A DNA stretch of 16,701 nucleotides, taken from positions 1 through 16,701 of the forward strand of contig JBDKRC010000339.1 of NCBI GenBank assembly GCA_039683575.1, written 5' to 3'. Shown here in pieces: positions 8,084-16,701 of this stretch. Numbering within the stretch: position 1 is the stretch's first letter; each line of letters starts with the position of its first letter. This stretch comes from Armatimonadia bacterium. Its GTDB lineage: Bacteria; Armatimonadota; Zipacnadia; Zipacnadales; UBA11051. The notes under the pieces were generated by a model. That model was not told the origin of the DNA. It did not search any database and saw only the letters and a program-made list of their open reading frames with translations. The position numbers and the translations under genes are program-made.

Positions 8084-8297
8084 ATACGTGTCAATCGGCG
8101 GGCCTCTGTTTTCACCGTTCTCGGTAGTGAGTCAGTTTGGATTGTGACGAAATGTGGACGGTCCGGCTGGCCAGGGACGGCTGAGACGAGGCCAAATCCG
8201 GGTGCGTGTCAAAATGAAAGAGCGTTGAAGAAGGTGTCGGCCGCACGCCGATGGAATCATCCTCTCCGCGCTGGGCCACATTGCCCGCGCTAAGCGC

Positions 8298-8328
8298 GTT
8301 TGTTCTGCCGCAGAACCAACTGTATTAA
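8298..8328 (+). promoter_or_regulatory. Candidate promoter with overlapping palindromic operator for the kinase-STAS-PIN cassette
   Basis: TTGTTC (8300-8305), 17 nt, TATTAA (8323-8328). Palindrome GTT-t-GTTCTGC-c-GCAGAAC-c-AAC (8298-8320) covers the -35 and spacer. Confidence 0.5.
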
Positions 8329-8338
8329 GAAAGCCGGC

Positions 8339-9229
8339 ATGCGTGTGGAAGGACCTTCTGCATCAGCGCTCCGTCTTCCCGTTGGGACGATCTATGACGG
8401 AAGTCGTGGAATTGACCAACTCTGCCGCTTGGTCAAGTTCGACGCGGGTAATGCTGCTGAAGTAGTCCTGGACTTGACACGCTGCAGCTTCATTGGCCAG
8501 ACCGCGACAGCGGTGCTGGGTGCCATTGTGAGACGACTTCATTCACGGGGAGTAGGAGTGTTCGCCACGTTCGGAGGCCAAAGCAGAGTGGAGGATCACC
8601 TCCGCCGAAACGGGTTTCTGCACGCGTTTGGGTGGGAGAAATTGCCACCTACTGGTCACGCTGTGCCGTACCGCCAGGACAAGGTACTCAACAGTGCTGC
8701 ACTGACCGACTATCTGATGAACAGTTGGATTGGCACTGGCTGGGTTGACGTGAGTGAATCCCTTAGTAGGGCCATCGCTGGAGCGGTGTGCGAAATTTAC
8801 ATGAATGCCCATGAGCATAGCGAGTCTTCCGTCGGCGTCTTCAGTTGTGGCCAGCACTATGGGGCGAGGTATGGCCGGGAGGCTATTCTGAGGTTGGCGG
8901 TTGTTGACCTCGGGATTGGTATCGTAGAGAACGTTCGTAGGTTTGCGAAGAACCCTGGCATCAAGGCGGATGATGCGTTGCGCTGGGCATTCTACAACGG
9001 CAGTAGCACAAAACACAGTGACACCATGCGCCGCGGACTTGGCTTAGGGCTGTTAAGAGACTTCGTCCAAGTGAACGGAGGCAGCCTTCAACTTCATACT
9101 AATGACGGCCAAGTTATGATTAGGACCGGACAAGATGAATATGCTACCCGGACGGCCCATTTTGGCGGCACGGTGGTCGTGATCGAGATAGTGTGCGATG
9201 AACGACACTACCACTTCAAGAATGAGTAG
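8339..9229 (+). CDS. STAS-like domain plus GHKL/HATPase (anti-sigma-factor-type Ser kinase-like) protein
   Basis: 296 aa from ATG 8339. N-terminal VVLDLTRCSFIGQTATAVL...HLRRNGF (STAS-like). C-terminal N-box EIYMNAHEHS, G1 AVVDLGIGI, G2 RRGLGLGLL and terminal GTVV. No TM segments or HisKA H-box. Confidence 0.85.
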   Translation: MRVEGPSASALRLPVGTIYDGSRGIDQLCRLVKFDAGNAAEVVLDLTRCSFIGQTATAVLGAIVRRLHSRGVGVFATFGGQSRVEDHLRRNGFLHAFGWEKLPPTGHAVPYRQDKVLNSAALTDYLMNSWIGTGWVDVSESLSRAIAGAVCEIYMNAHEHSESSVGVFSCGQHYGARYGREAILRLAVVDLGIGIVENVRRFAKNPGIKADDALRWAFYNGSSTKHSDTMRRGLGLGLLRDFVQVNGGSLQLHTNDGQVMIRTGQDEYATRTAHFGGTVVVIEIVCDERHYHFKNE

Positions 9230-9256
9230 TTTGGGTACTTCCGCGGAGGAACCATC

Positions 9257-9601
9257 ATGAAGATAAGCGTCAAGGAACAAGTAGGTCCAAATTGCCTCAC
9301 TATAGACGACGGCGAGATCATATATCAATTGTTGCACGGGCCACTCATGGCCGGAGAGGATGTCGAACTGGATTTCGGAGGGGTGGAGGTAATAGCATCA
9401 CCGTTCTTCAATGCGTCGGTTGGCCAACTACTCCGTGACATTCCGGAGCATGACCTTCGCGCGAGACTGCACTTTGAGGGATTATCGATTGCGGGAACGC
9501 ACGTGTTGGGGCGCGTCATAGCAAACTCTGCCGAGTACTACAGCAATCCAGATATGCGAAGGACTATTGATGAAATCCTTGATGGGGGAGGCAACGACTA
9601 A
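9257..9601 (+). CDS. STAS-like domain protein (DUF4325-like)
   Basis: 114 aa. GGAGG at 9245-9249. VELDFGGVEVIASPFFNASVGQL matches the STAS/anti-anti-sigma phospho-loop, with Ser48 at 9398-9400. Confidence 0.85.
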   Translation: MKISVKEQVGPNCLTIDDGEIIYQLLHGPLMAGEDVELDFGGVEVIASPFFNASVGQLLRDIPEHDLRARLHFEGLSIAGTHVLGRVIANSAEYYSNPDMRRTIDEILDGGGND

Positions 9602-10239
9602 TGGCAATCAACTATAGAGTTGCTGCCGATGTTGTTGATATCAGGACCGATGCCCCAAGAAGCAGCGACGTGTTCCTTGTTGATACGAACGTATGGTTCT
9701 GGATGACGTATTCCCGTGCCGGCTCCGGAGATCGTCCTCCCAGGCACTATCAGGTCACTGACTACCCCCTATTCGTCCGCCAGGCGCTTGCGGCCCACGC
9801 CAACATCCACCGCTGTGAGTTGTCATTGCCAGAACTCGCATCTCTCGTCGAGAAGACTGAGTTGGCAATCTACAGCGCAGCTACTGGATTTGACAGAAGT
9901 GTTCCGAATGCGCTGAAAATATACCGCCACAACGAGATCGCCGAACGTTCGAATGTGGTGGGAGAGATCCAGTCAGCGTGGTCGTTGTTGACGACGATGG
10001 CGAAGGCTGTTTCTTTTGTGGTTGACGAGACGCTGGGGGCGGGCACTATTGGCTGCTGCAGCAATTGTCAGCTTGACGCGTATGACGCCATGATGGTGGG
10101 GGCGGCCAGCCAGTGTAACATCAGCCAGATCATCACAGACGATGGTGATTACTGTACCATACCGGGTATCACTGTGTTCACCGCCAACCGTAGTGTCATT
10201 GGGGCTGCTAACCTGGCCAATAGGCTCGTGGTCCGATGA
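9601..10239 (+). CDS. PIN domain (VapC-like) ribonuclease
   Basis: 212 aa. FLVDTNVW, SLPELA, LDAYDA and ITDDGDY supply the PIN acidic residues. ATG overlaps the STAS stop (TAATG). Confidence 0.88.
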   Translation: MAINYRVAADVVDIRTDAPRSSDVFLVDTNVWFWMTYSRAGSGDRPPRHYQVTDYPLFVRQALAAHANIHRCELSLPELASLVEKTELAIYSAATGFDRSVPNALKIYRHNEIAERSNVVGEIQSAWSLLTTMAKAVSFVVDETLGAGTIGCCSNCQLDAYDAMMVGAASQCNISQIITDDGDYCTIPGITVFTANRSVIGAANLANRLVVR

Positions 10240-10329: not shown

Positions 10330-10359
10330 TTGACAGCCCTGCTCCCCATGTGGCATACT
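10330..10359 (+). promoter_or_regulatory. Sigma70-type promoter of the hyf/ehr-like operon
   Basis: Consensus TTGACA (10330-10335), 18 nt, CATACT (10354-10359) with extended -10 TG at 10351-10352. Confidence 0.7.
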
Positions 10360-10512: not shown

Positions 10513-12507
10513 GTGTTCGAAGTGTTACCCCCGGAATTACCCGGCGGCTTCGCATTACCGTGTGAAGCCGCTCTCATTCTTTGGTTCGCCGTATCCGTCA
10601 TCGGCCTGCTCAGGCGCAATCACGCCGGGCGAGTCCTCCCTGCCTTGACGGGTCTGGGCGCCCTCTTATTGCTGCTGACGGCCGTCCTGGGCGGCAACGC
10701 CCGCTTCGACCTCCCGCTGCCCTGGTCGCTCGCGGACGCCCGCCTGTCTCTGCTCGCCGACCCCCTCAGCCGCTGGTTCCTCGCGATCATCGCCCTCATC
10801 GGCCTACCGGTCGTGCTCTTCTCCTCCGGCTATCTGCACCATCTGCGCAGCCGCGTCTCCCTCGGCCTCGTCTGGTCCGGCCTCGCGCTGCTTCTCGCCA
10901 GCATGGCGGGCGTAGTCCTCGCGGCCAACGCCCTCACGTTCCTCGTAGCCTGGGAGCTCATGGCGCTCTCGTCCTACGCTCTCGTCGCCTCCGACAACCA
11001 CCAGCGCAGCATCCGCCAGGCCGCCTTCACCTATCTCGGCGCCACCCGCATCGGCACCACCGCCCTGATGGCCGGCTTCCTCTGGGCCCACCAGCTCACC
11101 GGTAGCTGGACTTTCGCCGACTGGCACCTGCAGGGCCCGAGCGCCCTCGGTCCCGGCCTCTTGATCCTCGCTGGTCTCGCGGTCAAAGCCGGTTGCTGGC
11201 CCTTCCATCTCTGGCTACCCATCGCCCACCCCGCCGCGCCTGCTCCCGTCTCCGCCATCATGAGCGGCGTCATGATCAAAACCGCGATCTACGCCATGGC
11301 CCGCTTCTTCATCGTCGGTGGCCACCTCTCGGCCCCCGCCCTCGGCCCCACGATCCTCATCCTCGGCGCCATCTCTGCGCCCTGGGGCGTCCTCTTCGCC
11401 CTCCTGCAACACGATCTCAAGCGCCTCCTCGCCTACCACAGCGTCGAGAACATCGGCATCATCCTGATGGGCCTCGGCGTCTCCCTGCTTGGCGTGCAGT
11501 GGCACTCGCCCCTGCTCGCCCAACTCGGTCTCGCCGCCGCCCTCTTCCATACTCTCAACCACGCCGTCTTCAAGAGCCTGCTCTTCCTCAGCACCGGGGC
11601 CGTGGACGCCCAGACCCACCTGCGCGACATCGAGCGCCTCGGCGGACTGATCAAGCGTATGCCATGGACTGCCGGCGCCTTCATCGTGGGCAGCGCCGCC
11701 ATCTGCGCCCTGCCGCCCCTGAATGGCTTCGCCAGCGAATGGCTGCTCTATCAGGGCTTCTTCGGCCTTGCCGCAGGCGGCCCTGATGTAGCCTCACGCC
11801 TCGGCGGCCTGCTGCTCATGGGCTGGTTAGGCCTCGTTGGCGCCCTCGCCATCGCCTGTTTTGCCAAGGCCGTGGGCATCGTCTTCCTCGGCCTCCCGCG
11901 CAGCACCGAGGCCGAACAAGCCCACGAGGTCACTCCCGCCATGGTCGCCGCCCAGGCCTTCCTCGGCCTGCTCTGCCTCGCCCTCGGTCTGGCCGTGCCA
12001 ACGCTCCTCGGCCCCCTCGGCCGCATCGCCGCCCCGCTCGGCCCCTCGGGCCCGCTGCAGGCCGCCTGGACCCTCCCTGTGGGTCTCCTGGCCCTGGTCC
12101 TGGTACTCACCCTGTCCGCTCTCGCGGGCTGGATGCTCCTTCTCGCCCGCCGCCATCCCGCGCGCACCTTCATCACCTGGGAATGCGGCTTCGGCCCCCT
12201 CGGCCCCCGCACCCAGTACACCGCCACCAGCTTCGCCCAGCCCATTTCCCGCCTCTTCGGCGCCATCTATAACTACGCCGTCGAGATCAGCCGGGCGGGC
12301 CGCCAGCGCCGCCATTTCCCCGACAGCGTCGCCGTCGAGACCGTCCATGAGGCCTACCTCGAAACGCGCCTCTACGCCCCGCTGCTCCGTGCCCTGCGCC
12401 ACGCCTCCGGCGTCTTTCTCATGCGCCTGCAAGCCGGCAGCATCCACCAGTACCTGATCTACATGGCCCTGCTGCTCATGCTGCTGCTCTGGGTGGGGTG
12501 CCGCTGA
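10513..12507 (+). CDS. hyfB: HyfB-like antiporter-type membrane subunit (NuoL/MrpA family) of an Ehr/hydrogenase-4-like complex
   Basis: 664 aa, hydrophobic. FLVAWELMALSS, KAGCWPFHLWLPIAHPAAPAPVSAIMSGVMIK, KRLLAYHSVENIG, NHAVFKSLLF, PPLNGFASEW and TWECGF...QYTATSFAQP. Exact start uncertain. Confidence 0.9.
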   Translation: MFEVLPPELPGGFALPCEAALILWFAVSVIGLLRRNHAGRVLPALTGLGALLLLLTAVLGGNARFDLPLPWSLADARLSLLADPLSRWFLAIIALIGLPVVLFSSGYLHHLRSRVSLGLVWSGLALLLASMAGVVLAANALTFLVAWELMALSSYALVASDNHQRSIRQAAFTYLGATRIGTTALMAGFLWAHQLTGSWTFADWHLQGPSALGPGLLILAGLAVKAGCWPFHLWLPIAHPAAPAPVSAIMSGVMIKTAIYAMARFFIVGGHLSAPALGPTILILGAISAPWGVLFALLQHDLKRLLAYHSVENIGIILMGLGVSLLGVQWHSPLLAQLGLAAALFHTLNHAVFKSLLFLSTGAVDAQTHLRDIERLGGLIKRMPWTAGAFIVGSAAICALPPLNGFASEWLLYQGFFGLAAGGPDVASRLGGLLLMGWLGLVGALAIACFAKAVGIVFLGLPRSTEAEQAHEVTPAMVAAQAFLGLLCLALGLAVPTLLGPLGRIAAPLGPSGPLQAAWTLPVGLLALVLVLTLSALAGWMLLLARRHPARTFITWECGFGPLGPRTQYTATSFAQPISRLFGAIYNYAVEISRAGRQRRHFPDSVAVETVHEAYLETRLYAPLLRALRHASGVFLMRLQAGSIHQYLIYMALLLMLLLWVGCR

Positions 12508-13421
12508 TGACTGCCCTCCTCTTCCAGCTTCTCAGTCTCCTCGTCATCCCGCTGCTGCTAGTGGGCGTGATCCGCAAGTTCAAGGCCCTCATGCAAAATC
12601 GCGTGGGCGCCTCCCTCCTGCAGCCCTTCTTCGATATCGCCAAGCTGCTGCGCAAGTCCGAGACCATCAGCGTCTCCGCGAGTTGGGTCTTCCGTCTCGC
12701 GCCCGTCCTCGGCCTCGCGGTCGCGCTGGTCGTCGCCGTCCTGGTTCCATGGGCCGGGCCGCTATTGCCCCTCTCACTCGCCCCGGCGACCAACTTCCTG
12801 CTTGTCCTCTACCTCCTCTCGCTGGGCAAGTTCATCGCCATGCTGGCCGCCATGGACACCGGCTCCGCCTTCGGTGGCCTCGGTGCCAGTCGCGAGGCAA
12901 CCATCTCGATGCTCGTCGAGCCCACCCTCGTAGTCGGCTTTGCCGCCCTTGGCCTTGGCGCTCACAGCACCGATCTCCTAACCATCTACGGCGCCCCCGC
13001 CAGCGGCATAGTCGCCGGACTCGTCGCCGCCGCCTTTGTCCTCTCGGCCCTCGCCGAACTCTCGCGTATGCCCGTGGACGACCCCACCACTCATCTCGAA
13101 CTCACCATGGTCCACGAGGCCATGATCCTCGAAAACAGCGGGCGCAACCTGGCCCTGACCGAACTCGCGGTCGCTCTGCGCACCTGCGTGTTTCTTGGCC
13201 TCGCCGCCCAGACCGCGCTGCAGGTCTGGCCCGCCCACGCGGCCCTGCCCCTCACCACCCGCTACGCCCTCGGCCTACTCGCCCTCTTCATCGTGGGCGT
13301 GGCCGTCGCCATCGCTGAGGGTATTCTCGTGAAGCTGAAGTGGCGCAAGGTGCCGAACCTGCTCGCCTTCGCAACGGTATTGAGCCTGCTGGCTGCCCTT
13401 ATGGCCGCCGCGCAGGTGTAG
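12507..13421 (+). CDS. hyfC: HyfC/HycD-like (NuoH family) membrane subunit
   Basis: 304 aa. QNRVGASLLQPFFDIAKLLRK, DTGSAFGGLGASRE and RMPVDDPTTHLELTMVHEAMILENSG. ATG overlaps the hyfB stop (TGATG). Confidence 0.92.
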   Translation: MTALLFQLLSLLVIPLLLVGVIRKFKALMQNRVGASLLQPFFDIAKLLRKSETISVSASWVFRLAPVLGLAVALVVAVLVPWAGPLLPLSLAPATNFLLVLYLLSLGKFIAMLAAMDTGSAFGGLGASREATISMLVEPTLVVGFAALGLGAHSTDLLTIYGAPASGIVAGLVAAAFVLSALAELSRMPVDDPTTHLELTMVHEAMILENSGRNLALTELAVALRTCVFLGLAAQTALQVWPAHAALPLTTRYALGLLALFIVGVAVAIAEGILVKLKWRKVPNLLAFATVLSLLAALMAAAQV

Positions 13422-13430
13422 GAGCTTGTT

Positions 13431-14075
13431 ATGAGTCTCTCCCCAATCGATCTCCTTGCTGCCGGCGTCGCCGTCCTGGGCGTCTGGATGTGCGGCGTCA
13501 CCCGCGTCCGCTCCCAGCTATGGGGCCTCTCACTTCAGACGGCCCTGCTGGCCGGTGTCTGCGTGGCTCTGGGCCTGATGCCGGGCGCCTCCCACTACCT
13601 GGTCCTGGCCCTCACTATCTTTCTGATCAAGGCCGTCGCCATCCCCATCTTCCTGGCCTGGTCCGCCGGTCGCCTCGAGATCACCCGAGACACCGGTACG
13701 GTCCTCGGTCCCACCGGCGCGCTCTTCGGCGCCTGCGCAGCCCTCGCCGCGGCCTACTTCATCGCCCCGCGCCTCGCGGTCCCCGCCCTCGGCAACTCCG
13801 GCGCTGCGGCTGTCTCACTCGCCCTGCTGCTCATCGGCATGCTCCTGATGATCACCCGCCGCCTCGCCCTGAGCCAGATCACCGGCTTTTTGGTCCTGGA
13901 AAATGGCATCTTCCTCTACGGCCTGACCCAGACCCACGGCATGCCGCTGCTCCTCGAAATGGGTATTGCCTTCGAGGTCCTCGTCGCCGTCATGATCGCC
14001 GGCCTGGTCATCACTCGCCTCAACCGCAGCTTCGAGCACATTGACGTAACCCAATTGCGGGGGTTACGCCATTGA
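13431..14075 (+). CDS. hyfE: HyfE-like membrane subunit
   Basis: 214 aa, hydrophobic. IKAVAIP, TRRLALSQITGFLVLENGI and PLLLEMG. AGGAG RBS. Confidence 0.9.
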   Translation: MSLSPIDLLAAGVAVLGVWMCGVTRVRSQLWGLSLQTALLAGVCVALGLMPGASHYLVLALTIFLIKAVAIPIFLAWSAGRLEITRDTGTVLGPTGALFGACAALAAAYFIAPRLAVPALGNSGAAAVSLALLLIGMLLMITRRLALSQITGFLVLENGIFLYGLTQTHGMPLLLEMGIAFEVLVAVMIAGLVITRLNRSFEHIDVTQLRGLRH

Positions 14076-15517
14076 GCCCCGCCCTCTATCTCTTCGCCTT
14101 GCCTCTCCTGATGGCCGTACTGGGTCTCTACCCGTGCGGCGGCCGCTGGCTGCCCGGCACTTCCGCCGTCCTCATGCTGCTGCAGGCCGCCGTCGCCGCC
14201 TGGCTCTGCCATCCGCAGCTAACTGGTGCCACCCCGGCCGCTGGCGCCTTCACCCTTGACGGCCTCGGCGCCGCCTTCGTACTCATCACCACCCTCGTCG
14301 CCGCTGCCGCCGTTCTGCAGGCCGCCTTCCTGCTCCCGGCCGAAGGCACCGGCGAAGAGGCCGTCAGCCAGCGCCGTCTCTGCTTCTTCTACACTCTCGC
14401 CGGCCTCTTCCTGTGCGCGATGTACGCCGTCCTGCTCGCCCAGAACCTCGGCTACCTCTGGATCGCGATGGAAGCCACCACGCTTATGTCTGCGCCGCTG
14501 GTGCATTACCACCGCAGCCGCCGCTCGCTCGAAGCCACCTGGAAATACCTCCTGCTCTGCAGCGTCGGTATCGCCTTCGCCCTCTTCGGCACGGTGCTGA
14601 TCTTCGCGGCCCAGCACTCCATCCCCGGCGAGGCCACCCTCTCGGTCACTGGCCTCCTCGCCCGCGCCACGCAACTTGACCCGCGCCTCCTGCGGCTTGG
14701 CTTCATCTTCTGCCTGCTCGGATACGGCACTAAGGCCGGCCTCTTCCCGCTGCACAACTGGCTCCCCGACGCCCACAGCGAGGCCCCTGCTCCCGCCTCC
14801 GCGATGCTCTCCGGCGCCCTGCTAAACTGCGCCCTCGTCGCCCTCTGGCGCCTCTCGCAGTTGGTCACCGCCGCCGGCCAACCCGACCTTGTCCGCCAGA
14901 TTCTCATCCCGGCCGGAGCCATCACCGTCCTCGCCGCCAGCCTCATGCTCGTACGTCAGGTTGATCTCAAGCGCATGTGGGCCTACTCGAGCGTCGAGCA
15001 CGTCGGTCTGCTCGCCCTCGCCATCGGCCTCAGCGCCGGGCCGCTCTTCATTCTCCACGCGTTCAATCACAGTATCGTCAAAGTCGCGCTCTTCCTGCTT
15101 GCGGGCAATCTCCTGCAGCACTACCACACCAAGCGCCTCAGCAAGCTCACCGGCCTGCTCGGCGGCGCCCCAGTCTGGGGCCTCCTGCTGGCCGCCGGGA
15201 GCTTCGCAATCGCTGGCAGCCCGCCCTTCGGCACCTTCCTCAGCGAGTGGCTCATCCTGCGCGACACCTTCGCCGCTGGCGAAATCCTCGCCGCGGTCGT
15301 GGTCCTGATCGGCCTGACCATCACCTTCATCGCCGTCTCAACCCACATCGGCCGCGTGCTCTTCGGCGCCCCGCCGCCCAAACCAGCCCCGGCCGCCCAA
15401 CGCTCCTGGGGCTTCACTCCCGCCATCCTGATCGGCCTTTCGCTGGCCGCGGGCCTGATGCTCACCCCCGCCGCCATGTCCCTGCTGGCCCTGCTCGGAC
15501 GGGGGGTGCTGCAATGA
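14072..15517 (+). CDS. hyfF: HyfF-like antiporter-type membrane subunit
   Basis: 481 aa. WIAMEATTL, SLEATWKYLLLCSVGIAFALFG, GYGTKAGLFPLHNWLPDAHSEAP and KRMWAYSSVEHVG. TTG start overlaps the hyfE stop. Confidence 0.92.
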   Translation: MSPALYLFALPLLMAVLGLYPCGGRWLPGTSAVLMLLQAAVAAWLCHPQLTGATPAAGAFTLDGLGAAFVLITTLVAAAAVLQAAFLLPAEGTGEEAVSQRRLCFFYTLAGLFLCAMYAVLLAQNLGYLWIAMEATTLMSAPLVHYHRSRRSLEATWKYLLLCSVGIAFALFGTVLIFAAQHSIPGEATLSVTGLLARATQLDPRLLRLGFIFCLLGYGTKAGLFPLHNWLPDAHSEAPAPASAMLSGALLNCALVALWRLSQLVTAAGQPDLVRQILIPAGAITVLAASLMLVRQVDLKRMWAYSSVEHVGLLALAIGLSAGPLFILHAFNHSIVKVALFLLAGNLLQHYHTKRLSKLTGLLGGAPVWGLLLAAGSFAIAGSPPFGTFLSEWLILRDTFAAGEILAAVVVLIGLTITFIAVSTHIGRVLFGAPPPKPAPAAQRSWGFTPAILIGLSLAAGLMLTPAAMSLLALLGRGVLQ

Positions 15518-16701
15518 TCGCCGTCCAGCGCACCACCGCAACAGTTGACACTCTCCCGCAGGTAGTCCCGGCTCGACTGACCCAGCCCGGCTGGCGCTTC
15601 GGCCACCTGACCGCCCGCCTGCTGAGCCCCGAAAGCGTCGCGCTTGAGGTCCTGCTGCTTGACACCACCTCCGGCTCGTGCGAGATCCTGACCGCACCGC
15701 TGCCGCCCGCGGTGCTCGAATACCCGTCCCTCGCGCCCGCCGTGCCCGCCGCGCATCGCGCCGAACGCGCCGTGCACGACTTCTTCGGCGTCCGCGCCGT
15801 GGGTCCGCGTGGCTCTCAAAGCCTCATTCTCCACGACGACGTCTGGCCGCTGGATGTCACGCCCCTGGCCCCCGAACTCGGCGGCACGCGTGACCCGTAC
15901 GTGTTCCGCAAGGTCCTCGGCGAGGGCGTCCACGAGATCCCGGTCGGCCCCATCCACGCCGGCATCATCGAGCCCGGCCACTTCCGCTTCAGTTGCGTCG
16001 GCGAGATCATTACCAACCTCGAAATCCGCCTCGGCTACCAGCATCGCGGTATCGAGAAGCGGCTCGCCGAGCTACCGTGGCAGCAAACGCGCTACCTCGC
16101 CGAATCCGCCAGTAGCGATACCGCCGCCGGCAATGCCCTCGCCCACGCCGTCGCTATCGAGTCGCTCCTTGGTGTGGACTGCCCGCCGCGCGCCCAGGCC
16201 CTGCGCACCCTCGCCCTCGAGGTCGAGCGCCTCGCCAACCACGCGGGTGACCTTGGCGCCCTCGCCGGTGATATCGGCTACAGCCCCGGCGCGGCCCTCT
16301 TCCCGCCCCTGCGCGGTGCCGCCCTGGCCCTGGCACAACTCCTCAGCGGCAACCGCCGCCAGCGCTGGTATATCCGCCCCGGTGGAGTAAGCCGCGACCT
16401 GCCGCAGGATCGCCTGACTGACTTCAGCGCGGGCCTGGCCGACCTCAAGCGCCGCCTGCACGACTACGTGCCGCTAATTCTCGACAACCCCTCGGTCCTC
16501 GACCGCATGGAGGGCACCGGGCGCGTCACGCCGTCCATGGCCCGCGACTTCGGCCTCGTCGGCCCCGCCGCCCGCGCCGGCGGCAGCACCTACGACGCCC
16601 GCACCGCCTTCGCCCACGGCGTCTACCCGACCCACGCGCCAAATCCCGCCACCCTCGAAACCGGCGACGTGCTAGCCCGCGCCCAGATCAAAGCTGACGA
16701 A
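15514..16701 (+). CDS. hyfG: HyfG/HycE-like large subunit (NuoC+NuoD-like) lacking L1 cysteines (Ehr type); 3'-partial
   Basis: Not in the ORF track because it has no stop in the window. Translated by hand from ATG 15514 (ATGA overlap with hyfF) and open for 396 codons: YPSLAP, AERAVHDFFG, GVHEIPVGPIHAGIIEPGHFRF, RLGYQHRGIEK, LEVERLANH, GPAARA and GDVLAR. Confidence 0.92.
   Translation, partial: MIAVQRTTATVDTLPQVVPARLTQPGWRFGHLTARLLSPESVALEVLLLDTTSGSCEILTAPLPPAVLEYPSLAPAVPAAHRAERAVHDFFGVRAVGPRGSQSLILHDDVWPLDVTPLAPELGGTRDPYVFRKVLGEGVHEIPVGPIHAGIIEPGHFRFSCVGEIITNLEIRLGYQHRGIEKRLAELPWQQTRYLAESASSDTAAGNALAHAVAIESLLGVDCPPRAQALRTLALEVERLANHAGDLGALAGDIGYSPGAALFPPLRGAALALAQLLSGNRRQRWYIRPGGVSRDLPQDRLTDFSAGLADLKRRLHDYVPLILDNPSVLDRMEGTGRVTPSMARDFGLVGPAARAGGSTYDARTAFAHGVYPTHAPNPATLETGDVLARAQIKADE

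Follow-up and report, generated by a model that had tools for sequence, protein, structure and literature searches.

A probable vapKSC operon encoding a STAS-GHKL kinase, a STAS antitoxin, and a PIN toxin in an Armatimonadia bacterium

RESULTS

Similarity of the cassette to the vapKSC system

This analysis concerns a 16,701-nucleotide (nt) stretch of DNA from an Armatimonadia bacterium (Zipacnadales; UBA11051), positions 1 to 16,701 of contig JBDKRC010000339.1 in assembly GCA_039683575.1, which is referred to below as the window. Three consecutive plus-strand open reading frames (ORFs), designated vapK, vapS, and vapC (Table 1), most probably form an intact vapKSC operon, a three-component toxin-antitoxin/abortive-infection module; we place the probability of this assignment at about 0.88. 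Judged by sequence comparison, the cassette would be a new and fairly divergent copy of the operon. Every residue that was mutated in the published work on the Escherichia system (PMC13373217) is present in the window, namely, D28 of VapC, S48 and the C-terminal helix of VapS, and F51 of VapK.

The vapKSC system was named by Chambers, Rani, Min, Villa, and Corbett (EMBO J 2026; PMC13373217; preprint of February 2026, 10.64898/2026.02.02.703251). In this system, a kinase with STAS and GHKL domains (VapK) is combined with a STAS antitoxin (VapS) and a PIN toxin (VapC). In Escherichia sp. E4736, VapC is toxic and its D28A mutant is not, while VapS restores growth and assembles with VapC into a 2:2 complex that was solved as a 3.4-Å crystal structure (PDB 9z7o). 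S48 of VapS sits hidden within the interface between VapS and VapC, S48E abolishes both binding and rescue, and deletion of residues 94 to 116 abolishes rescue. Unlike many VapB antitoxins, VapS leaves the catalytic Mg2+ in place, and release is proposed to occur by phosphorylation rather than proteolysis. The Escherichia operon protects against phage Bas42 by about 2 logs, and this protection is lost with VapC D28A, VapS S48A, or VapK F54A (PMC13373217).

A literature search for alternative names or prior descriptions of the system returned only this paper, its preprint, and the PIN.4 subfamily entry of Matelska et al. (NAR, PMC5499597), a one-line entry that noted the linkage of PIN and DUF4325 in 2017 with neither a function nor a kinase. 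In the preprint 10.1101/2025.09.30.679545, HATPase appears only in a different system, Ambrosia. An initial sequence-only reading of this DNA had pointed to a CapK/CapS-related report involving a VapC and had cautioned that the class might not be wholly new; the report exists and is the vapKSC paper (PMC13373217), whose publication in 2026 removes the possible novelty.

The window genes lie on one strand in the order vapK, vapS, vapC, with a 27-nt gap between the first two and a 1-nt overlap between the last two; a GGAGG is placed 8 nt ahead of the vapS ATG. The GC content of the cassette is 0.542, versus 0.619 in the left flank and 0.684 in the right flank of the window, and the contrast is much stronger in GC content at third codon positions (GC3), which is 0.59 for vapK, 0.56 for vapS, and 0.63 for vapC, against 0.85 and 0.87 in the neighboring genes on the left and right, respectively. 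The three tightly linked genes of lower GC content described in the sequence-only reading were thus found as stated. The family itself can be tied to the published one through genomes in common: among 80 related loci (described below), three come from genomes listed in Dataset EV3 of PMC13373217, those of Planctomycetes bacterium GWA2_39_15 (L002), Pseudomonas sp. GM84 (L037), and Desantisbacteria CG2_30_40_21 (L042), and for this reason we regard the window family and the vapKSC family as the same.

Sequence features of VapS and VapC

When the sequences of VapC and VapS were compared with those in the PDB, only the two chains of 9z7o were matched. VapC aligns over residues 2 to 206 with 9z7o_C ("Escherichia VapC," E = 6.6e-30), and VapS aligns over residues 2 to 109 with 9z7o_A ("Escherichia VapS," E = 2.5e-21), which together with its DUF4325 match (Table 1) bears out the stand-alone STAS protein of the initial reading. 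Family models were less informative for the toxin, for which Pfam PIN scores below threshold (17.9 bits; cut-off, 23.6), and NCBIfam gave only sub-threshold noise on all three proteins. Homologs of VapC numbered 287 at E ≤ 0.001 among 754 candidates, and from the best 120 of these, 24 sequences including that of the window were chosen for taxonomic spread and aligned. Eight acidic residues (D28, E78, E84, D159, D162, D180, D181, and D183) are invariant in all 24, so that the VapC-like PIN protein, homologous to Escherichia VapC, keeps D28; intact acidic residues and translational coupling of the PIN gene to vapS through TAATG had both been read correctly from the sequence.

VapS carries the absolutely conserved Ser/Thr of the family as S48. 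Its C-terminal region (window residues 94 to 114), which corresponds to the helix extending to the active site of VapC, is present and aligned; Y94 is invariant and R101 nearly so among 26 sequences, and the alignment with Escherichia VapS runs through residue 109, with the last five residues (GGGND) unlike the family consensus. The gene upstream of vapC thus encodes a STAS/DUF4325 protein and not a ribbon-helix-helix, AbrB, helix-turn-helix (HTH), or PHD-like VapB, as would be expected of a canonical VapBC pair. Among window ORFs of ≥120 amino acids (aa), Pfam found neither a VapB-like gene nor a sigma factor or HTH protein in or beside the cassette, in agreement with the initial reading as regards VapB and the sigma factor.

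A related protein, P0114 (309 aa, on a 20,406-nt contig), contains DUF4325 and a VapC-like PIN domain in a single chain. It was considered as a natural VapS-VapC fusion and set aside: its linker is unlike any VapS C terminus, and the chain may represent frameshift read-through.

Domain structure of VapK

VapK combines CapK-like STAS and GHKL domains. Pfam scores for both are below threshold (STAS, 20.3 bits with a cut-off of 22.6; HATPase_c, 19.0 bits with a cut-off of 26.4). A structure model built on a 26-sequence alignment reached a mean predicted local distance difference test (pLDDT) score of 86 and a predicted template modeling score of 0.86. The best structural match of residues 106 to 289 is SpoIIAB (1l0o_A; Z = 14.6; root mean square deviation, 2.4; 136 of 141 residues), followed by UsfX, RsbW (6m36_A, Z = 10.9), and the RsbW domain of Rv1364c, with Z scores of 10.4 to 11.2. 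Residues 4 to 100 resemble the STAS domains found in sulfate transporters and in anti-sigma antagonists (3oir_A, Z = 9.4; 4qtp_A, 9.2; 1sbo_A, 8.6; RsbS 6jhk_A, 8.4). In a Foldseek search with the model, the top matches were all GHKL ATPases with modest E values (1e-4), and none was returned for the STAS half; a second structure search, independent of Foldseek, resolved both domains. Because the model identified the kinase where Pfam alone was weak, we consider its identity settled, and the STAS-like plus HATPase protein with intact N, G1, and G2 boxes that had been proposed from the letters is upheld, all three boxes retaining their invariant columns (Table 1). The sole segment of the model with a pLDDT below 50, residues 231 to 234, is presumably the mobile ATP lid, for which this is expected.

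The VapK family has two conserved Phe columns, and the residue list of the authors' AlphaFold 3 model (C52-R53-F54-L55-R56-P57-N58; PMC13373217) decided which of them holds F54 of Escherichia VapK; it corresponds to F51 of the window protein, where the neighboring residues G53 and T55 differ.

The start of vapK merits comment. The gene call in the database, P0121 (266 aa), begins 30 residues after the ATG at 8339 and skips positions 8339 to 8428. The family alignment starts near window residue 8, and residues 11 to 32, which form the first STAS strand and helix, are confidently modeled (blocks 11 to 30, pLDDT >90). Because the omitted residues are conserved in the family and confidently modeled, we prefer the ATG at 8339, and the deposited call is probably truncated at its 5′ end. 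An in-frame TTG at 8300 would lengthen the protein by 13 aa.

Since the kinase domain matches SpoIIAB most closely, in a structure of its complex with sigma F, and other anti-sigma kinases follow, one may ask whether the two upstream genes constitute a classical partner switch of the SpoIIAB/SpoIIAA or RsbW/RsbV type for a sigma factor encoded elsewhere, next to an unrelated PIN gene. This is the least probable of the explanations that we weighed. Neither a sigma factor nor a PP2C phosphatase is encoded among the window ORFs of ≥120 aa or the 10 annotated ones, and PP2C is likewise absent from the cassette. Furthermore, the adjacency of VapS and VapC in 79 of 80 loci, with overlaps of 1 or 4 nt in 63 of 79, contradicts an unrelated PIN gene, and VapS is homologous to a protein that was crystallized bound to VapC.

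A transcriptional switch of the CapK/CapS type, in which the kinase would phosphorylate a STAS repressor and thereby de-repress the downstream Hyf/complex-I-like genes, is also very improbable. CapK and VapK are related STAS-GHKL kinases, and capKS lies upstream of the operon under its control (PMC13373217); in the window, a sigma-70-like site is located at 10330 to 10359, between vapC and the downstream operon. However, both proteins lack the DNA-binding parts of that system. By Pfam and structure matches, there is no N-terminal HTH on the kinase and no C-terminal winged HTH (wHTH) on the STAS protein: VapK has no Pfam match to an HTH family and opens with its STAS domain from about residue 4, and VapS, at 114 aa with a short helix region at its end, has no HTH or other DNA-binding domain by Pfam. 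In addition, VapS matches the VapS chain of 9z7o and not a repressor, the PIN toxin gene is translationally coupled to vapS, and the downstream operon has a host-like GC3 that puts it outside the foreign cassette.

Conservation of the gene order and loss of VapK

To follow the cassette across genomes, we used the best 80 of at least 166 stretches encoding a VapC relative, obtained from a scan of one genome per species. They cover Planctomycetota, Acidobacteriota, Cyanobacteria, Chlorobia, Desulfobacterota, Nitrospirota, Gammaproteobacteria, Bacillota, Bacteroidota, Synergistota, and one Methanospirillum. In all but one locus (L006, which has only 70 nt of upstream sequence), the gene immediately upstream of VapC encodes a VapS homolog on the same strand; the overlap of the two genes is 1 nt long in 48 of these 79 loci and 4 nt long in 15. 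VapK was sought with a family profile; 4 loci are too near a contig end for judgment, and among the 76 informative ones, 54 have VapK as one full-length ORF, whereas it is in fragments or truncated in 13 (L007, L008, L017, L027, L031, L039, L047, L048, L049, L057, L067, L069, and L080), and undetected in 9 (L009, L023, L034, L051, L058, L060, L061, L066, and L075). The recurrence of this gene order in phyla far apart puts the cassette far beyond chance; co-conservation of the three genes, whose lack the sequence-only reading had named among the findings that would refute its proposal, is supported by the VapS count and by the 54 full-length VapK ORFs.

Many of the loci with a broken VapK come from metagenome-assembled genomes, and some breaks may be assembly errors. 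If the losses are real, VapSC would be a self-standing pair to which VapK is attached as a detachable trigger. Loci with a missing or decayed kinase would escape the survey of PMC13373217 because it started from VapK.

Several kinase-less loci have neighbors of their own. In L023 (1099 to 4403) and L075 (2497 to 4499), VapSC directly follows type I restriction-modification (R-M) genes (HsdM and HsdS in the former, HsdS in the latter); L075 also adjoins a HepT-like/nucleotidyltransferase pair, and L061 adjoins a DUF499 ATPase. Going by the gene annotations, these neighbors represent a defense-type context unlike that of the window. In L009 (2675 to 5606; Floridaenema evergladense), the stop codon of a full-length kaiC, itself closely preceded by kaiB, is followed 15 nt later by the start of vapS, and in the sister species F. 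flaviceps (L007), the same position holds two VapK fragments ending at locus coordinate 4639; a deletion or rearrangement may have removed VapK. In the cyanobacterial loci L051 and L060 (4210 to 5001 in each), the VapS frame is open for 263 aa with DUF4325 at residues 166 to 224 and follows a large tetratricopeptide repeat protein (802 and 1,163 aa, respectively); either VapS is N-terminally extended there or the ORF is merely open upstream of the true start.

Proposed mechanism and biological role

In the mechanism proposed for the cassette, the PIN nuclease VapC would be held inactive in a VapS2VapC2 complex, in which the STAS domain of VapS would bind VapC and its C-terminal helix would lie over the entrance to the active site. 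VapK would be switched on by damage or infection, through a signal proposed to be single-stranded DNA (ssDNA) stacking on the conserved Phe (F51); it would then phosphorylate S48 at the VapS-VapC interface, phospho-VapS would let go, and free VapC would cleave RNA and stop growth. We infer the activity of the window copy, the direct phosphorylation of VapS by VapK, the ssDNA signal, and the RNA target of VapC. By analogy with the Escherichia operon (PMC13373217), whose tested residues the window retains, the central proposal of the sequence-only reading, in which the STAS protein serves as antitoxin to the PIN nuclease and phosphorylation by the kinase releases the nuclease upon a stress or phage signal, appears supported.

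Several observations weigh against this assignment. In the published work, Escherichia VapK was insoluble, and VapS phosphorylation and ssDNA activation were deduced from AlphaFold 3 models, mutants, and the related CapK/CapS pair, for which both were shown (PMC13373217). The window VapC and VapS are only about one-third identical to the Escherichia proteins (identical letters counted in the alignments). VapK is broken or undetected in 22 of the 76 informative loci, about 3 in 10 VapSC pairs, and the kinase is therefore not indispensable for VapSC retention. In the window VapK itself, residues by F51 depart from consensus: G53 (Arg in 47 of 55 sequences), T55 (Asn in 50 of 55), V59 (Phe in 53 of 55), and L46 (Phe in 54 of 55), and its sensing surface may differ from that of the family. 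No model of PADLOC-DB 2.0.0, which predates PMC13373217, matches any of the three proteins, so that the PADLOC check suggested with the initial reading came back empty. Defense genes are absent from the 10 Pfam-annotated flanking ORFs, which leaves the cassette without a defense-island context, and a tblastn search with VapC (E ≤ 1e-5) gave no match among 72,556 records of plasmids and 50,697 of phages.

The off-consensus positions of VapK, together with the fragmented and undetected kinases of related loci, raise the question of whether the window holds a decaying, nonfunctional remnant of a horizontally acquired cassette. We regard this as improbable. All three ORFs are intact, and the invariant columns (27 in VapK, 13 in VapS, and 29 in VapC) are kept, although this follows from the invariants having been defined with the window included; contigs from RNA libraries that are identical to parts of all three genes add a weak hint in the same direction. 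The unusual residues are shared in kind with the nearest relatives of the window VapK, P0122 (60% identical) and P0123 (47%), and thus appear to be a lineage trait and not random decay. The three proteins form a small diverged subclade that keeps all the catalytic boxes and the stacking aromatic (F, W, and F) and that has jointly replaced the Arg by Gly or Ser, the second Phe by Val, Ala, or Leu, and GNSIPYRED by GHAVP-x-R. These replacements might reflect tuning to a trigger other than ssDNA, for example, a different form of nucleic acid or a phage protein, a sequence-based suggestion that we consider doubtful; if true, the STAS domain of VapK would be an exchangeable sensor.

A more serious, if still tentative, alternative keeps the machinery and changes the role: the operon would be a general DNA-damage/stress growth-arrest or addiction module and not a dedicated anti-phage system. 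It differs from the vapKSC abortive-infection reading in biological role only and shares its mechanism. The housekeeping-type flanks fit this role, as does the published work (PMC13373217), in which only 103 of 289 vapKSC instances (36%) have a PADLOC hit at a distance of 10 kb or less, protection was demonstrated for a single phage, and the authors call the boundary between immunity and stress response fuzzy. Persistence of VapSC with a broken or missing VapK is also what would be expected of an addictive pair. On the other hand, the protection conferred by the Escherichia operon needs all three genes (PMC13373217), several related loci adjoin type I R-M, HepT/MNT, or DUF499 genes, and a patchy distribution with foreign composition is typical of defense cargo. 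In the defense-island check suggested by the sequence-only reading, a defense-type context is seen beside some relatives and not in the window.

Distribution, origin, and transcription

The window's own genome has one copy of the cassette. A search for VapC found none in 40 related genomes that are 66 to 98% complete; 3 of them belong to the genus of the window, a further 12 to its family, and another 25 to its order. Because of the GC3 contrast and the lack of a copy in these relatives, the cassette appears, on compositional and comparative grounds, to have been horizontally acquired. Two genomes of the same genus have orthologs of the GH123-like gene that precedes the cassette (73% nucleotide identity); by tblastn, VapK, VapS, VapC, HyfB, and HyfC were all absent from approximately 6.1 kb and 4.0 kb downstream of these orthologs. 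Neither genome shows synteny for the right flank, which leaves no clean insertion site to be defined.

Three runs of one metatranscriptome study contain five contigs of 173 to 203 nt that match segments of each of the three genes with full identity (8348 to 8550 in two runs, 9425 to 9597, 9595 to 9781, and 9758 to 9936); none spans a gene junction, and none falls on the flanking sequence that was compared. They come from RNA libraries in which DNA carry-over is possible, and missing cover elsewhere carries no meaning; they give a weak hint that the cassette is transcribed.

Genomic context

The 10 flanking ORFs annotated with Pfam are of housekeeping type and include DUF1559, MBOAT, an AMP-binding ligase, the GH123-like protein, and a Hyf/complex-I-like membrane operon. 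The upstream intergenic region is presumed to contain the promoter; a promoter scan found no sigma-70-like site on its plus strand (8084 to 8338). The terminator-like hairpin within it could insulate the cassette from upstream transcription. Repeats in the window are short, two-copy, and chance-like, without direct repeats flanking the cassette, and no Rfam family reaches the gathering threshold anywhere in the window. Downstream, positions 10513 to 16701 encode a Hyf/Mrp/complex-I-like operon (GC3, 0.87) with two Proton_antipo_M proteins, NADHdh, and Complex1_49kDa, and a strong hairpin is found at 10543 to 10572, just within its first gene.

Table 1. Coordinates of the cassette and associated features in the window
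Feature	Position	Strand	Basis
Upstream intergenic region, presumed promoter region (255 nt, after GH123-like gene)	8084-8338	+	GC 0.573
Terminator-like hairpin, G+C-rich, 5 bp, T-rich tail	8286-8298	+	Hairpin scan; 40 nt before vapK start
vapK, 296 aa: STAS domain (~residues 4-100) and SpoIIAB/RsbW-type GHKL serine kinase domain (~106-289)	8339-9229	+	ORF, model, structure matches
VapK Cys-x-Phe motif C49-S50-F51-I52-G53	8483-8497	+	F51 column Phe in 54/55 sequences, window included
VapK N box E152/N156/H160	8792-8818	+	Invariant columns, 26/26 sequences
VapK G1 box D190-L-G192-I-G194	8906-8920	+	D190, G192, G194 invariant, 26/26 sequences
VapK G2 box G233-L-G235-L-G-L-L239	9035-9055	+	G233, G235, L239 invariant, 26/26 sequences
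vapS, 114 aa: STAS/DUF4325 antitoxin (predicted)	9257-9601	+	DUF4325 E = 9.2e-16; PDB 9z7o_A match
VapS I46-A-S48-P-F-F-N52, phospho-acceptor serine motif (predicted); S48 codon 9398-9400	9392-9412	+	S48 invariant in 26/26 VapS
VapS C-terminal region Y94-D114, equivalent of helix reaching VapC active site	9536-9598	+	Alignment
vapS/vapC stop/start overlap TAATG, A shared	9599-9603	+	Sequence read directly
vapC, 212 aa: PIN-domain toxin (predicted)	9601-10239	+	PDB 9z7o_C match; homologs
VapC D28 codon, catalytic aspartate	9682-9684	+	Invariant column; aligns with FLVDTNVW motif of Escherichia VapC
Weak terminator-like hairpin over vapC stop codon	10224-10241	+	6 pairs, 3 G-C, T-rich tail; consensus match only

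DISCUSSION

Significance

The architecture, the toxin-antitoxin structure, the phospho-switch, and the anti-phage phenotype of vapKSC were published in 2026, and the window cassette carries little weight as a discovery. Its value lies mainly in annotation, by which genes labeled "hypothetical," "DUF4325," and "PIN" become vapK, vapS, and vapC. Two modest additions go beyond PMC13373217, namely, the frequent loss or decay of VapK beside intact VapSC and the diverged VapK subclade, and both bear on what activates VapK, the inferred step of the published model.

Comparison with known systems

Compared with the vapKSC operon of Escherichia sp. E4736, the window has the same genes in the same order, and its VapC and VapS are full-length homologs of the crystallized chains, whereas its host has a high-GC genome with planctomycete-type flanking genes and no nearby defense genes. 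The PIN.4 subfamily (PMC5499597) is similar in that the window VapS is a DUF4325 protein, a comparison made by the description of the subfamily.

With VapBC type II toxin-antitoxin systems, the cassette shares a PIN toxin with a canonical acidic active site and a coupled antitoxin gene upstream, but the predicted antitoxin is a STAS protein without a DNA-binding domain.

In the SpoIIAB-SpoIIAA and RsbW-RsbV modules, the STAS protein is phosphorylated on a conserved Ser, and phosphorylation changes its binding partner. The window kinase is closest in fold to SpoIIAB, with RsbW among the next matches. There, however, the kinase binds a sigma factor, whereas the window STAS protein is predicted to bind a PIN toxin; moreover, the window kinase has its own N-terminal STAS domain, and the operon has neither PP2C nor a sigma factor.

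The CapK/CapS pairs of Bub, CBASS, and other immune operons resemble the cassette in that a STAS-GHKL kinase phosphorylates a conserved Ser of its STAS partner, with ssDNA as the proposed or shown activator acting through an aromatic residue (W68 in CapK, F54 in VapK) (PMC13373217). An HTH is found at the N terminus of CapK and a wHTH at the C terminus of CapS, and the output of the pair is transcriptional de-repression, whereas the predicted output of the window cassette is the release of a nuclease.

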